Assembly (NCBI GenBank): GCA_041489255.1
Contig: JBGPQV010000033.1
Coordinates: 1 to 16,648 of the forward strand
Length of the DNA stretch: 16,648 nucleotides
Direction: 5' to 3'
From: Thermoplasmata archaeon
GTDB lineage: Archaea; Thermoplasmatota; Thermoplasmata; RBG-16-68-12; JAFNFQ01
Shown here: positions 1 through 13,299 of the stretch, piece after piece
Position numbering within the stretch: the stretch's first letter is position 1
Layout: every line of letters starts with the position of its first letter
The notes under the pieces: generated by a model
Told to the model about the DNA's origin: nothing
Seen by the model: only the letters and a program-made list of their open reading frames with translations
Databases searched by the model: none
Translations under genes and position numbers: made by a program

Positions 1-397
1 ATACGCGGGGATCATCAAGTACACGGGGGAACGCGTGCCCGGGGACCTGAGCAGCCTGAAGCTGGAGCCCTTCCTTACCGCCATACGCCAGGTCGCAGCT
101 GAATCGTACAGGGTCTTGAAGCCGGGGAAGCACTGCGCGATACTCATCGGAGACACGAGGAAGCACAAGCATTACATCCCGATCTCGGTGAGGGTGCTGG
201 AGCAATTCCTGGACGTCGGCTTCATCCTGAGAGAGGACATCATCAAGATTCAGCACAAGATGAAGTCGACGCGAGAAAAGTGGCGGGGAACCAAGTACGA
301 CTTCTACCTTTTGGCGCATGAGCACCTGTACGTGTTCAGGAAGCCCGCCACTGGAGAGAAGATGTCGGAGTTCAGGAACAGCGTGAAGTGGCGATAA
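1..397 (+). CDS. 3' part of a SAM-dependent amino-methyltransferase (N4/N6 DNA methylase / TRM11-like); runs off the left edge; repeat copy R1
   Basis: The frame is open from the window edge (YAGIIKYTGERVPGDLS...YRVLKPGKHCAILIGD...GFILREDIIK...HEHLYVFRKP) to TAA at 395-397. It is nearly identical to 3346-3861, which shows the DLVATHPPY motif IV. Whether the gene is intact upstream cannot be seen. Confidence 0.85.
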   Translation, partial: YAGIIKYTGERVPGDLSSLKLEPFLTAIRQVAAESYRVLKPGKHCAILIGDTRKHKHYIPISVRVLEQFLDVGFILREDIIKIQHKMKSTREKWRGTKYDFYLLAHEHLYVFRKPATGEKMSEFRNSVKWR

Positions 398-410
398 GTC
401 TGGACAGAGG

Positions 411-444
411 ATTTAAGTATCTGTCGTGCAATTATATCACGACA
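411..444 (+). promoter_or_regulatory. TATA box plus palindromic operator of cassette 1
   Basis: TTTAAG at 412-417, about 27 nt before ATG 444. Inverted repeat TGTCGTG-N9-CACGACA at 422-444. Confidence 0.6.
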
Positions 445-806
445 TGGCGACATTCGAGCGTCACATGGCCCAGTACAAGGCGTTGAAGGACATGGCGAAT
501 CTGCCTGCAGGGACGCCGCAGGGTCGTGTGGAATTGCTTTTCCTTGCCGCCTACCACCTAATCGATGCCTGCGCCGCGAAGAAGGGGCAGCACATCAACA
601 AGCATCAGAATGTTCGACGGGAACTTGAGGCCAAACCGATCATCCTTGGTGAACGGACTGAACGCGTCTGGCGGGCTTTCAATGACCTCCAAGGCGATTT
701 CCGCGCGAAGTTCGTCTACGGAGGCGATTGGAAAGAGAAGGAATTGGAGGAGGCTGTCCAGAGGTTCGAGACGGTCGAGAGACTGTGCCTGGAGGTGCTT
801 GGGTGA
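444..806 (+). CDS. HEPN-like (PaREP1/UPF0332-type helical) protein, putative toxin partner
   Basis: 120 aa from ATG 444. Contains LFLAAYHLIDACAA, HINKH and R-x4-Y (RAKFVYG). Paralogous to 3917-4279 and 10092-10454. Coupled to the downstream nucleotidyltransferase by a GTGA overlap. Confidence 0.7.
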   Translation: MATFERHMAQYKALKDMANLPAGTPQGRVELLFLAAYHLIDACAAKKGQHINKHQNVRRELEAKPIILGERTERVWRAFNDLQGDFRAKFVYGGDWKEKELEEAVQRFETVERLCLEVLG

Positions 807-1420
807 ACCCGCCGAGGATCGACAGGGCAGTTGCGGCCTTGAAGGAAATCCTGCACGGCAGACCAGAGGTGGAATCCGCAATCCTCTACGGTTCCTGCGC
901 CAAGGGCACGGCACGCGAAGACAGCGACATAGACGTGCTGGTGCTGGCCTCGGAGGGAAGTGCGGCCCGCCTCCGTGAGGAGATTCACGACATTGAAAGC
1001 GAGTTCGATGTGAATGTCTCGTCCATGGTTCTGCGTCCCCAAGAGATCGATCAGCTCGACCGCCAGTTTCTTGATTCCATTCTCAGGGAGGGGATCCCTC
1101 TGGCTGGACAGCTGCCAGAGGTCTCCATCCAAGACCTGCAGTTGCGCCCTCTGCGTCTGGTCAGTTTCGACCTGTCCCACCTGGCTCCTCCCCAGAAGAT
1201 GCGCCTCTACAGGCTCCTCGATGGCTATGTCACGGTGAAGCGCCGTGGTCGGAAGCGCTACGAGCACAGGGTGGACGGTTTCCTCAAGGAAGTGGGAGGC
1301 TGGCGGATTGGACGGGGGGCCATCGTGGTACCTGAGCCCGCCGCTCCCCGGCTCGAGGAGATACTCTCGAATGCCAACGCCAAGAGATGGACGATCGCAG
1401 CATGGGCCCAGCCATTCTGA
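803..1420 (+). CDS. Minimal nucleotidyltransferase (MNT) with an extra C-terminal domain
   Basis: YGSCAKGTAREDSDIDVLV is the pol-beta GS-x10-DxD motif. The GTG 803 start (NPP...) matches the paralog start MNPP at 10451 and overlaps the upstream TGA. Confidence 0.85.
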   Translation: MNPPRIDRAVAALKEILHGRPEVESAILYGSCAKGTAREDSDIDVLVLASEGSAARLREEIHDIESEFDVNVSSMVLRPQEIDQLDRQFLDSILREGIPLAGQLPEVSIQDLQLRPLRLVSFDLSHLAPPQKMRLYRLLDGYVTVKRRGRKRYEHRVDGFLKEVGGWRIGRGAIVVPEPAAPRLEEILSNANAKRWTIAAWAQPF

Positions 1421-1441
1421 ACGCCTCGCTCGTGCCTCACC

Positions 1442-1612
1442 CTCCGTGAGGACATCATCGAGATACAGCACAAGATGAAGAGCACGAGGGAGAAGTGGCG
1501 GGGGACAAAGTGCGACTTCTACCTCTTAGCTCACGAGCACCTGTGCTTGTTCAGGAAACCCGCCACTGGAGAGAAGCTTTCAGAGTTCAAGAACAGTGTG
1601 AAGTGGCGGTAG
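1442..1612 (+). repeat. R2: copy of the methyltransferase 3' end
   Basis: Reads LREDIIEIQHKMKSTREKWRGTKCDFYLLAHEHLCLFRKPATGEKLSEFKNSVKWR-TAG. Core 1466-1612. Confidence 0.95.
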
Positions 1613-1718
1613 AAAATGCGTCCGCTCTCTGCCTTAAGTAGGCCAAAGCGCATTGCTTAAATGTAAAGCGGTGAGTTGTGGAGAACTGCCGCGTTTCGAG
1701 AAGAGATGGCGAGCGACG

Positions 1719-11984: not shown

Positions 11985-12125
11985 AGGATGGAACTCATGA
12001 AGGAGAAATGGCGGGGGACGAAGTGCAACTTCTACCTCTTGGCGCATGAGCACCTGTACATCTTCAGGAAGCCCGCCAAAGACGAGAAGTTGTCGGAGTT
12101 CAAGAACAGCGTGAAATGGCGGTAG
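11985..12125 (+). repeat. R9: copy of the methyltransferase 3' end with a degenerate 5' part
   Basis: RMELMKEKWRGTKCNFYLLAHEHLYIFRKPAKDEKLSEFKNSVKWR-TAG. Confidence 0.93.
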
Positions 12126-12154
12126 CAGCCGGGGGCCTACTTCCCACCGAAGGG

Positions 12155-12204
12155 TTTAAGCCTTCTTGGATATATCGTTAGCCATATGGCTAATAAGTTA
12201 GCCA
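12155..12204 (+). promoter_or_regulatory. TATA-like box and triple TTAGCCA operator of cassette 9
   Basis: TTTAAG at 12155-12160. Perfect palindrome TTAGCCATATGGCTAA at 12178-12193 and a third half-site at 12198-12204. Confidence 0.65.
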
Positions 12205-12222
12205 ATATCCGGACATGATCCC

Positions 12223-12825
12223 ATGCTCGGTAACTGGCTCTCGGAAGCGCTGTCTTCGAGGACGAAGACGAAGGTCGTCAGGCTGCTCACATCCTTCCCG
12301 ACGAGGGAGTTCACAGGACGCGAGATTGCCGGCATCATCGGAGTCGGCCACAGGGCCGTCGACATCGCCCTCGGGGATCTCGTCTCGCTGGACATCGTGA
12401 CGGTCCGCCGTATCGGGAGGGCGAACGTCTACACAGCGAACGGCGACTCTCAACGCTTCCAGGCACTCGCCAGACTCTTCGAGGAGGAGGCAAAGACCCG
12501 GGACGCTCTCCTGAGCGAGATCAGGGTGTCGATTCCCGATGTCCTCTCGTGCGTCCTCTTCGGAAGCGTCGCGAGGGGCGAGGAGAGCCTGGACAGCGAC
12601 GTCGATCTGCTCGTGATCGCGGACAATCCGAAGGGCTTGGCCGAAGCCTTGGAGAACCTCCGCTCGAAAGTGGCGAAGAGGTTCTCGCTGCACCTGGCCC
12701 CGATCGTCCTCACGCCAGCCCAGCTCAGGGAGAAATGGAAGGCGCCTTACGTGGTGTCGGCGACGAAGGATGGGCGGTTGGTCGCGGGCGAGAGCCTGGA
12801 GGGAGTCCGTGCCCGGACCCGTTAG
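12223..12825 (+). CDS. wHTH-MNT antitoxin
   Basis: N-terminal FTGREIAGIIGVGH..V...L..LV..DIV..RRIGRA.VY winged HTH. LFGSVARGEESLDSDVDLLVI nucleotidyltransferase motif. Confidence 0.88.
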   Translation: MLGNWLSEALSSRTKTKVVRLLTSFPTREFTGREIAGIIGVGHRAVDIALGDLVSLDIVTVRRIGRANVYTANGDSQRFQALARLFEEEAKTRDALLSEIRVSIPDVLSCVLFGSVARGEESLDSDVDLLVIADNPKGLAEALENLRSKVAKRFSLHLAPIVLTPAQLREKWKAPYVVSATKDGRLVAGESLEGVRARTR

Positions 12826-13222
12826 GACCCGGACGGTTGAGAAGAATCTCCACCGCAATTTCCTCAGGAAGTCCGAGGAGTTCTTGGACAGTGCGAGTCA
12901 CGCCCGGCGCCAGGGGAATCACGATGCTTGCGTTTCAGCCGCCGTCCATTCCGCAATCTGTGCGGTTGACGCTCTGACCACGTTCTACCTCGGGGTGAGG
13001 CACGCCGGAGAGAGTCACGGCGAGGCCTTGATGCTCTTGAGGCGTGTGAAGCTGCCAGCCGACGAGATCGAGCGTGTTGAGCGTCACTTCTCCGCGATGC
13101 TGCAGACGAAACGAGTCGCGGAGTACGAAGACCGCTTCACGAGCGCGGCTGAAGGCGAATCGGTGATGAAGCATCTTCAAAGGCTTAGGTCGATCATCCT
13201 CGCTTCTCTGCAAGCTCGGTGA
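12809..13222 (+). CDS. HEPN-domain protein
   Basis: FLRKSEEFL..A...AVHSAICAVDAL......RHAGESH...KRVAEY. GTG 12809 follows GGAGGGA and overlaps the MNT gene. Confidence 0.8.
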   Translation: MPGPVRTRTVEKNLHRNFLRKSEEFLDSASHARRQGNHDACVSAAVHSAICAVDALTTFYLGVRHAGESHGEALMLLRRVKLPADEIERVERHFSAMLQTKRVAEYEDRFTSAAEGESVMKHLQRLRSIILASLQAR

Positions 13223-13269
13223 AAATCGGTCGAGGGCGGGCTTCAGTTAGGCGTTCCCAAGGAGAAGGC

Positions 13270-13299
13270 TACTTGTTCAGGAAGCCCGCCACGAGTGAG
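13270..13299 (+). repeat. R10: short remnant of the methyltransferase repeat marking the array end
   Basis: TACTTGTTCAGGAAGCCCGCCAC versus consensus TACGTGTTCAGGAAGCCCGCCAC (22/23). Confidence 0.8.

Follow-up and report, generated by a model that had tools for sequence, protein, structure and literature searches.

The repeat array and its methyltransferase anchor

The stretch of DNA analysed here (the window; 16,648 nucleotides, nt) is the entire contig C33 of a 2.74-Mb, 41-contig metagenome-assembled genome (MAG) of a Thermoplasmata archaeon (genome G000; GenBank assembly GCA_041489255.1, contig JBGPQV010000033.1). It contains ten plus-strand copies (R1 to R10) of the 3′ end of an open reading frame (ORF) for a DNA methyltransferase of family PF01555, alternating with nine cargo units (W1 to W9), as established from direct repeats, from inspection of the letters and from a search of the whole genome; the contig starts inside copy R1. 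The features are listed below in order of position (aa, amino acids; IS, insertion sequence; wHTH, winged helix-turn-helix).

R1, 1–397, plus strand: 3′ two-thirds of the methyltransferase ORF; stop codon TAA at 395–397.
W1, 398–1433, plus strand: 120-aa helical protein (444–806, no family) and MNT nucleotidyltransferase (803–1420; PF18765 2.4e-12, PF01909; PADLOC PDC-S09/PDC-M05A).
R2, 1434–1612, plus strand: repeat copy, stop TAG.
W2, 1613–3345, plus strand: 320–338-aa archaeal hypothetical protein (1653/1707–2669) and 215-aa PIN-like protein (2680–3327).
R3-long, 3346–3861, plus strand: 516 nt, 171 aa, 5′-truncated methyltransferase with DPPY motif, stop TGA; PF01555 9.3e-9, profile positions 1–109 of 221.
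W3, 3862–4911, plus strand: 120-aa protein (3917–4279) and MNT (4276–4890); 95.7–97.3% identical to the copy in genome G001.
R4, 4912–4975, plus strand: 5′ part of the repeat only, ending after the TGGCGGGG block.
W4, 4976–7482, plus strand: HNH endonuclease (6543–7484; PF13391 1.2e-11), with an IS upstream of its gene.
IS in the W4 spacer, 5046–6483: imperfect terminal inverted repeats, 10-bp target duplication GTCAGAGACG.
R5, 7483–7661, plus strand: repeat copy, stop TAG.
W5, 7662–9147, plus strand: ATPase_2 + DUF234 protein (7757–9154; PF03008 6.2e-23, PF01637 2.5e-17; PADLOC PDC-S27 1.6e-31).
R6, 9148–9326, plus strand: repeat copy, GAG in place of the stop codon.
W6, 9327–9847, minus strand: HicB-like antitoxin (9555–9782; PF15919 weak) and HicA toxin (9330–9554; PF07927 3e-12).
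R7, 9848–10026, plus strand: repeat copy, stop TAG.
W7, 10027–11072, plus strand: 120-aa protein (10092–10454) and MNT (10451–11068).
R8, 11073–11251, plus strand: 1-nt deletion in the 5′ part; stop TAG.
W8, 11252–11946, plus strand: 91-aa protein (11303–11578, no family) and zinc-ribbon/AbrB-MazE-like protein (11580–11927; weak PF15731, PF04014).
R9, 11947–12125, plus strand: 5′ part decayed; stop TAG.
W9, 12126–13269, plus strand: wHTH-MNT (12223–12825) and HEPN (12770–13222); PF01909 1.2e-8, PF05168 8e-5, PADLOC PDC-M05A 2.6e-27.
R10, 13270–13335, plus strand: decayed remnant of the last ~65 nt of the repeat; abuts a convergent GNAT gene.
Right chromosomal flank, outside the array, 13334–16648, mixed strands: GNAT acetyltransferase (minus), FkbM-family methyltransferase (plus), ribosomal protein L15e (minus), membrane protein (minus).

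The ten same-strand copies and their alternation with nine units lie where a preliminary description of this DNA, made from the letters alone, had placed them. R3, listed there as a 147-nt core, extends over 3346–3861 as a 171-aa piece of the gene; the calls of toxin–antitoxin (TA) pairs, an HNH nuclease and an ATPase hold. The cargo is not uniform in orientation, the HicB/HicA pair (9330–9782) lying on the minus strand. The repeat is coding and conserved in sequence (84–94%), with lengths of 110–516 nt; identity among the copies of one array is 62–94%. A stop codon (TAA, TAG or TGA) closes seven of the copies; R6 has GAG there, R4 is cut short and R10 is decayed. The cargo of the window measures 0.5–1.7 kb per unit and is without mobility genes, apart from the secondary IS.

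When a 179-nt copy was compared with the whole 2.74-Mb assembly, ten matches were obtained with E from 1.4e-89 to 1.2e-4, all of them on C33, and the other 24 matches listed had E ≥ 0.23. The repeat is therefore not a dispersed miniature inverted-repeat transposable element, and its matches are far beyond chance: the scatter over the genome irrespective of context that marks such elements, and that had been named as a reason to abandon the cassette proposal, is absent.

The anchor is by family a DNA N6/N4 methyltransferase, of predicted enzymatic activity. Motif IV, (D/S)PPY, and the region of the S-adenosylmethionine (AdoMet)-binding motif I match the PF01555 profile, and the full-length protein of locus L155 (L-numbers denote fetched loci or metagenome contigs) matches it in two stretches (1.5e-24) with the motif-I part N-terminal, which is the permuted order. 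The 5′ part of the gene is not in the G000 assembly. In G001, a genome of the same genus that differs from G000 at species level and is a separate record, contig C8 ends with a full-length ortholog, preceded by a paralogous methyltransferase, a ParB-N-like protein and an Mrr-type nuclease. Full-length genes are also found on four metagenome contigs, and intact genes of 250–311 aa precede cassettes in G001:C8, L155, L165 and L152/L166. In Logan contigs of four sequencing runs, a leftward run from 3378 (a loose end, with alternative letters at 3412–3798) carries the R1 allele on into a full-length methyltransferase, and R1 is therefore probably the end of the intact gene.

Within the full-length gene of G001:C8 a two-N join (L062 11409–11410) falls exactly at the left edge of the repeat and replaces ~50 nt, probably as a product of scaffolding at a collapsed array. 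Genes for an endonuclease of the DpnI / Dam-replacing family lie beside the methyltransferase or within its array in three lineages (L075 5700–6485, minus strand; L067 6820–7692, plus; L064 1302–2129, plus), as a divergent neighbour in two more distant lineages, L075 and G011. If methyl-directed, such an enzyme would be an odd partner for a methyltransferase.

At the other end of the array, R10 is probably the oldest displaced 3′ end. The same flank follows the array in G001 (76.9% identity) and in L154 (97.5%). In the comparison with G001 the flank (window 13324–16443 against L061 9460–12628) is 76.9% identical and other regions 91–96%. The G001 sequence beyond the flank matches G000:C5:239–6020 at 96.2%, and on this match contig C5 of G000 probably follows C33 in the chromosome.

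Order, content and distribution of the cassettes

The window carries its cassettes in the order W1-2-3-4-5-6-7-8-9. In G001 the order is a beta-helix gene, W7, W4, a new PIN cassette (N1), W3, W2, the long copy, part of W8 and the flank; the four cassettes common to the two genomes (2-3-4-7) are exactly reversed, with their orientation kept. The near-identical relative L160 has W2, the long copy, W5, W7 and W8 (W5 97.9%, W7 99.9% and W8 100% identical to the window) and is without W3, W4 and W6, the gaps falling exactly between repeats. L158 reads W6, N1, W9, W1, N5, its W1 being 99.3% identical to that of the window in a different context, and L154 contains a methyltransferase copy, W9 only and then the flank. 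W9 together with one repeat is absent from G001, with a clean junction. The less-filled sites of G001 (at W9), L160 and L154 align with the repeat, as in insertions with long target duplication, with the caveat that these are short-read assemblies. Some associations recur: W2 is followed by the long methyltransferase copy in all six contigs that hold W2, W6-N1-W9 is common to L153 and L158, and W7-W8 to the window and L160. The full-length genes are followed by four different first units (G001:C8, L165, L152/L166 and L155).

These comparisons bear out the earlier proposal that a methyltransferase 3′ end plus cargo behaves as a movable module, since other orders and subsets occur in G001 and in 17 metagenome contigs and the missing cassettes of L160 are cut out between repeats. 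Relatives of identical content and order, which the preliminary description had taken as a sign of immobility, were not encountered; G001 and the metagenome contigs differ, which favours mobility. Its further suggestion, that the array was built at the methyltransferase gene, gains support from the different first cassettes behind full-length genes, from the third-position differences described below and from the confinement of the repeat to this locus. As judged by these comparisons the array is evidently dynamic, not static.

It is improbable that the array is instead a relic of a few old serial insertions with long target duplication, now inert, whose apparent reshuffling consists of chimeric joins between strains. 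The cassette orders do all come from short-read MAGs or metagenome assemblies, in which repeats can give chimeric joins. Logan unitigs break inside most repeats, the two-N join of G001:C8 is placed exactly at a left edge, and adjacent cassettes differ in their identity to the window (88.5–100% in L160, 85.9–99.3% in L158) in a way compatible with chimeras. Against this explanation, cassette-specific tails and junctions recur in independent assemblies (the long copy after W2 in 6/6 contigs; W6-N1-W9; W7-W8), and G000 and G001, separate species-level genomes, differ in cassette order and each have diverged alleles of their own. Junctions are clean at both the W9 indel and the IS insertion, and arrays with other cargo occur in other families. 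The suspicion of misassembly is met in part by the Logan contigs: those of four independent runs reproduce window segments at ≥ 99%, bridging R6 and R10, and R4 by overlap, but break inside most other repeats.

Runs X1–X5, from sediment samples, contain 68–99% of the sampled words of the window. In three runs that contain the window at ≥ 99% (X2, X4 and X5), some contigs leave an R8-like copy (at 11251) or an R6-like copy (at 9320) into different sequence, and one such continuation resembles the W2 spacer; these loose ends hint that the same samples contain further arrangements. The Logan contigs of the four runs showed neither circles nor empty junctions nor joints, which is uninformative, as contigs drop rare forms. 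Cassettes of G000 and G001 are 84–97% identical. A recent transfer between the two genomes, considered at first from cassette identity above that of the 76.9% flank, was withdrawn, the baseline from 36 kb of other G001 contigs being 93.6% and the flank unusually divergent; cassette identity gives no support to a recent horizontal transfer between the two.

The array is best read as a hypervariable TA/defence island of an uncultured euryarchaeal lineage from sediments. Among 79 genomes of the order, 11 match the last 60 residues of the methyltransferase at E ≤ 1e-6, and six, from three families, have same-strand multi-copy arrays on one contig (G000, G001, G006, G011, G013 and G016). In G013 the copies separate Gabija-like (OLD-type ATPase and UvrD helicase), Shedu-like, SMC-like, SNF2-type and DpnI-family genes. 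Members of the methyltransferase family occur in many phyla of archaea and bacteria, at 52–71% identity; of the 80 loci that were fetched, only L075, a distant MAG (in the order gene, HicBA, HEPN-MNT, decayed 3′ copy), and perhaps L100 were found to have partial 3′ duplications, apart from G001. A 26-nt repeat pattern retrieved 17 metagenome contigs, all with related copies, 11 of them with at least two. Overall there are ~20 types of cargo, about a dozen beyond W1–W9, and units reach ~6 kb outside the window. The further types include a PIN_2 pair, a Panacea-type antitoxin pair, a zinc dehydrogenase, membrane proteins, an AIPR/HNH/PLD/SNF2 block and a large NosD/beta-helix/fn3 surface protein. 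The large secreted NosD/beta-helix/fn3 gene has a methyltransferase gene or copy on its left and a short copy on its right (L061 37–1548, L062 11684–12420, L163, L156, L161). Some cassettes are not defence genes.

Anatomy of the repeat and movement of the cassettes

A total of 59 copies (window, G001 and the 17 metagenome contigs) were mapped on a register that begins at window position 3346 (position 1) and has the first stop-codon base at position 514. The right edge is sharp: 39 of the 59 copies end within 513–515, where the stop codon begins. Left edges are ragged and extend over 341–453, with smaller classes at 288–307 and 1–52. Copies behind the same upstream cargo have the same left edge (W1 341/341, W3 370/368, W4 363/363, W5 352/352, W7 378/378, N5 343/343; for W6, 350–354 in four of five copies), and the 5′ part of a copy, the tail, therefore belongs to the upstream cassette.

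Such edges make it highly improbable that the units are decayed tandem modules, each once with a complete methyltransferase gene whose 5′ part was deleted later. Long copies do exist (R3-long, and those of L153, L156 and L162, which reach back to residue ~72–100 of the full protein), but independent deletions would not start most copies within ~50 nt of one another while all end at the stop codon. Moreover, no internal copy retains the N-terminal motif-I half, and the tails are specific to their cargo and recur across assemblies.

The interior of the repeat follows neither neighbour. In the most recent shared pair, W1 (99.3%), the last ~46 nt of the preceding copy are co-inherited, including a rare CGA-TAA ending, and sharing of the following copy's tail stops at about position 408. 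The shared head (the last part of the ORF, to the stop codon) begins at ~451 for W7 (99.9%) and at ~482 for W3; over these three recent pairs, heads are co-inherited only from ~451–482 and tails only to ~408–426. In none of the 15-nt bins are copies that share only their upstream cargo, or only their downstream cargo, closer to each other than unrelated copies (typical values 0.147/0.133/0.131 at 450–464). Repeat variants being linked to neither neighbouring cargo, the interior is a mosaic with no fixed crossover point.

Two fixed positions for the exchange were considered and rejected. A crossover at the stop codon, which would define the cassette as cargo plus the following repeat, is at odds with the rare CGA-TAA end, which travels with W1 in two contexts. 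A single crossover near the TGGCGGGG block, taken from the junction of the head-less HNH cassette, does not agree with the heads of W7/L160 and W1/L158, shared only from ~451–469, and was rejected also because no bin shows linkage.

The copies have diverged as coding sequence. Over 54 internal copies the mismatch at codon positions 1/2/3 is 0.117/0.094/0.232 in the tail and 0.082/0.068/0.244 in the head, that is, differences are 2.5–3.5 times more frequent at third positions in both halves, and serine codons switch between TCG and AGC from copy to copy. From this third-position excess it follows that the copies diverged as parts of working genes, not as dead fragments.

A recombinase linked to the repeat was looked for in G000, G001, G008, G011 and G013, and in G006 and G016 with PF00589 only. 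PF00589, PF16795 and PF00239 (tyrosine, SSV-type and serine recombinases) have no match on the array contigs of the genomes searched. PF16795 gave no match, and the PF00589 matches (four in G000, two in G001, 12 in G013) lie on other contigs. No integrase-bearing member or helper stands beside a repeat copy in those genomes, which as incomplete MAGs do not make the absence a proof, and no repeat copy lies beside any integrase of G000. Nine inspected metagenome contigs contain no recombinase-like ORF. The 12 kb upstream of the G001 gene contain no recombinase, the search being limited in that the stretch left of the window is unassembled. In viral contigs the DNA pattern of the repeat had 0 matches and its protein 0 confirmed. 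An attC-like fold was sought in three copies, both strands as DNA, and z scores of −1.07 to +0.30 against shuffled sequences showed no signal. Clusters of three adjacent Resolvase (serine recombinase) genes, with ORFs of ~300–425 aa, were noted in both same-genus genomes, at G000:C28:14922–17872, G000:C25:26748–29659 and G001:C36:48962–51873; such a trio may belong to a mobile element and has no apparent connection with the array.

We lean towards the view, held as somewhat probable, that homology-driven single crossovers bring cassettes in and out, each cassette bearing a portable stretch of methyltransferase coding sequence and each exchange regenerating the gene. A cassette would consist of a head, an AT-rich spacer with one or two cargo genes, and a tail, the latter being a methyltransferase fragment with a cassette-specific 5′ limit. 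Either circular or linear with terminal repeats, it would undergo a single Campbell-type exchange with the gene or any internal copy, at some point within the ~120–175 nt of coding sequence that the two have in common. This would rebuild a complete ORF and push the previous 3′ end downstream; recombination between two copies would loop a cassette out, and repeated cycles would give arrays, reshuffling and exchange from strain to strain. The engine would be homology-driven recombination, by a host RadA-type system or a low-specificity enzyme acting in trans, with the methyltransferase coding sequence as portable homology. It is favoured because the exchange points are not fixed and no recombinase is linked to the array, and variable exchange points would account for the mosaic interior and the coding-type divergence of tails. 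Selection for a working methyltransferase would keep heads complete to the stop codon, leaving tails free to erode. We infer a circular or terminally redundant intermediate, a catalyst and ongoing activity.

Several observations weigh against homology-driven exchange. Besides the short-read origin of the orders, the breaks of Logan contigs inside most repeats, the lack of circles and the unremarkable identity of G000 and G001 cassettes described above, they concern the fine structure of the repeat, and much of this would suit a site-specific system acting in trans. The arrays would then consist of integrase-less satellites (CIME-like, tycheposon-like or an integron analogue; CIME, cis-mobilizable element), served by a recombinase from a virus, a plasmid or the unassembled left stretch with its site inside the methyltransferase 3′ end, and the mosaic would be secondary gene conversion. 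The left edges cluster at 341–393 in 28 of the 59 copies (which are not independent), and partial copies in other families and in L075 start at a similar position in the gene (q100–128); such clustering is not predicted by random fragment ends, except where tails pass on together with their cassettes. In four blocks (355–384, 394–407, 460–469 and 475–513) conservation extends even to synonymous sites. A 9-nt word, AAGTGGCGG, occurs in every copy, twice direct (encoding K-W-R) and once inverted (CCCGCCACT, P-A-T), at register 398–407, 463–471 and 505–513 (window 3743–3752, 3808–3816 and 3850–3858), the last site abutting the stop codon; the inverted word is not conserved in the distant L075 gene. 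The blocks and the word would fit protein binding sites, for which they are candidates only. Two head-less junctions are located at AAGTGGCGG: that of the HNH cassette, the same in both genomes behind different tails (the truncated R4 junction also precedes it in G001), and a similar one on a contig of run X5. The copies of an array have not become uniform (62–94%), as frequent homologous exchange might have made them.

The in-trans system could further draw on the tyrosine recombinases elsewhere in G000 (four matches) and G001 (two), and on the reversed 2-3-4-7 order in G001, which three moves of the kind 'excise and reinsert next to the gene' would produce and which has a chance of ~0.04 (24 permutations). 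It nevertheless seems unlikely. Recombinases were found neither on the array contigs nor in the 12 kb that precede the G001 gene, no repeat copy was found beside the G000 integrases and no attC-like fold, and the viral contigs were empty by both pattern and protein. A fixed site predicts permanent linkage, whereas the repeat variants are unlinked to either neighbour, and under a fixed crossover tails would never have been part of a working gene, in contrast with their coding-type divergence.

Comparison with known systems and properties of the cargo

The locus is a new form of tandem accretion or of insertion with long target duplication, rather than an integron. Long target duplication has been described for bacterial restriction-modification units without a mobility gene, flanked by direct target duplications of 46 to ~420 bp that often overlap a gene 3′ end (Furuta, Abe and Kobayashi 2010, PMC2853133). 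The available part of that paper gives the mechanism as unknown, proposes a cycle of insertion, amplification via the repeats and release, and selects inserts < 20 kb that have no mobility gene and a direct target duplication > 30 bp; in that part, no archaeal case survived the screen. The array has all of these selected properties. The cases in that part of the paper, however, are single insertions at scattered bacterial targets, and here one target was used serially, giving ten copies; the cassettes here are common to strains and reshuffled, and the duplicated piece is always the same ORF end, which restores the ORF.

Tandem integration at a gene 3′ end is known from the accretion of CIMEs and integrative and conjugative elements (ICEs) in streptococci. 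As in tandem accretion, the array repeats are partial target 3′ ends and the target gene is intact. A preprint on the tycheposons of Prochlorococcus islands (10.1101/2020.12.28.424599) describes, in the portion available, serial integration in which the incoming element brings a target 3′ end, restores the gene and pushes older elements inward, leaving arrays with partial target copies between elements, including integrase-less remnants. Tycheposons, as described there, are larger and target tRNA genes, and at least some have tyrosine recombinases and defined att sites, whereas the target of the array is protein-coding, its units in the window are 0.5–1.7 kb, none of the ~20 cassette types has a recombinase and the exchange points are not fixed. 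With the available text of these two sources as close precedents, the preliminary statement that no described system has such a layout was too strong; in the open-access full text searched, no description of a methyltransferase-anchored archaeal cassette array was found.

Integrons have been reported in Archaea, according to the available part of a preprint (10.1101/2022.02.06.479319). Like them, the locus has a one-ended array of small, mostly same-direction, TA-rich cassettes, the content of which varies between close relatives. Of the three integron features tested, this variability of a small-cassette array was found, and an integrase and attC were not. There is no IntI, attI or attC, and the repeat is conserved in sequence and not in structure, with no fold signal; the cassettes appear to have AT-rich promoter-like spacers of their own, and the repeat is untied to the upstream cassette except in its ragged 5′ end. 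The integron-like mechanism first proposed is thus not upheld, there being no cis recombinase, no attC-like fold and a repeat interior linked to neither cargo. Tentatively, and with more doubt than confidence, the array could be regarded as a counterpart of the integron that works without an integrase. Its recombination handle would be the last ~150 nt of the ORF, modules from the DNA of relatives would be inserted by host homologous recombination, and the methyltransferase would be rebuilt each time, so that the anchor is never lost, while a population-wide pool of at least 20 TA, defence and surface-protein cassettes is continually reshuffled.

Small modules are also moved by other systems. 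In Acinetobacter plasmids XerC/D moves small resistance or TA modules (pdif modules), and the pTN3 integrase of Thermococcus has low specificity, with outcomes like those of homologous recombination on ~100-bp homologies. Unlike in these, neither a dif-like 28-bp site nor such an integrase was identified in the array.

The assembly of defence islands and TA arrays is well understood only where there is a recombinase (integron integrase, phage or ICE integrase, transposase), and for archaea there is very little information. The only common element of this array is a piece of coding sequence, and the same architecture is found in three families, with recognised defence systems. If homology alone, or an enzyme in trans, moves the cassettes, this would be a simple and general route of gene capture, and a repeatable mechanism would then be tied to the old, unexplained 'insertion with long target duplication' seen for restriction-modification genes.

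The nine cargo units of the window comprise four MNT pairs, HicB/HicA, a zinc-ribbon/AbrB-like pair, a PIN-like pair, the HNH enzyme and the ATPase_2+DUF234 protein. The partner of the MNT protein is a 120-aa protein without a family match in three units and a Pfam HEPN protein in one. The 120-aa partners of W1, W3 and W7 have no sequence match in Pfam, NCBIfam, PADLOC or PDB, and calling them 'HEPN-like' is an inference from gene order. The MNT and ATPase units match PADLOC candidate defence families. The two W2 proteins have no family match and only Atlas leads (a DUF8098 cluster, 0.97, and PIN-annotated clusters, 0.93). The HNH enzyme of W4 resembles phosphorothioate-DNA-dependent restriction enzymes (NF045808 6.2e-21, below the cut-off).

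The IS upstream of the HNH gene contains two ORFs, which overlap and have an A7 run between them; its DDE matches are weak (IS240/IS66 profiles, below the cut-off). It is a single copy in G000; the uninterrupted site is present in G001, where a 304-nt match of 98% lies on contig C5. An Rfam scan of the window returned no RNA family.

By reading, the spacers after the stop codons are AT-rich, with TATA-like words (e.g. TTTAAGTA and TTAAGTAT) ~25–35 nt before the start codon; these appear promoter-like, and the cassettes appear to be self-expressed. Perfect or near-perfect palindromes are present at 10069–10090 and 12179–12194, just upstream of the start codons of W7 and W9, and look like operator sites of autoregulated toxin–antitoxin operons.

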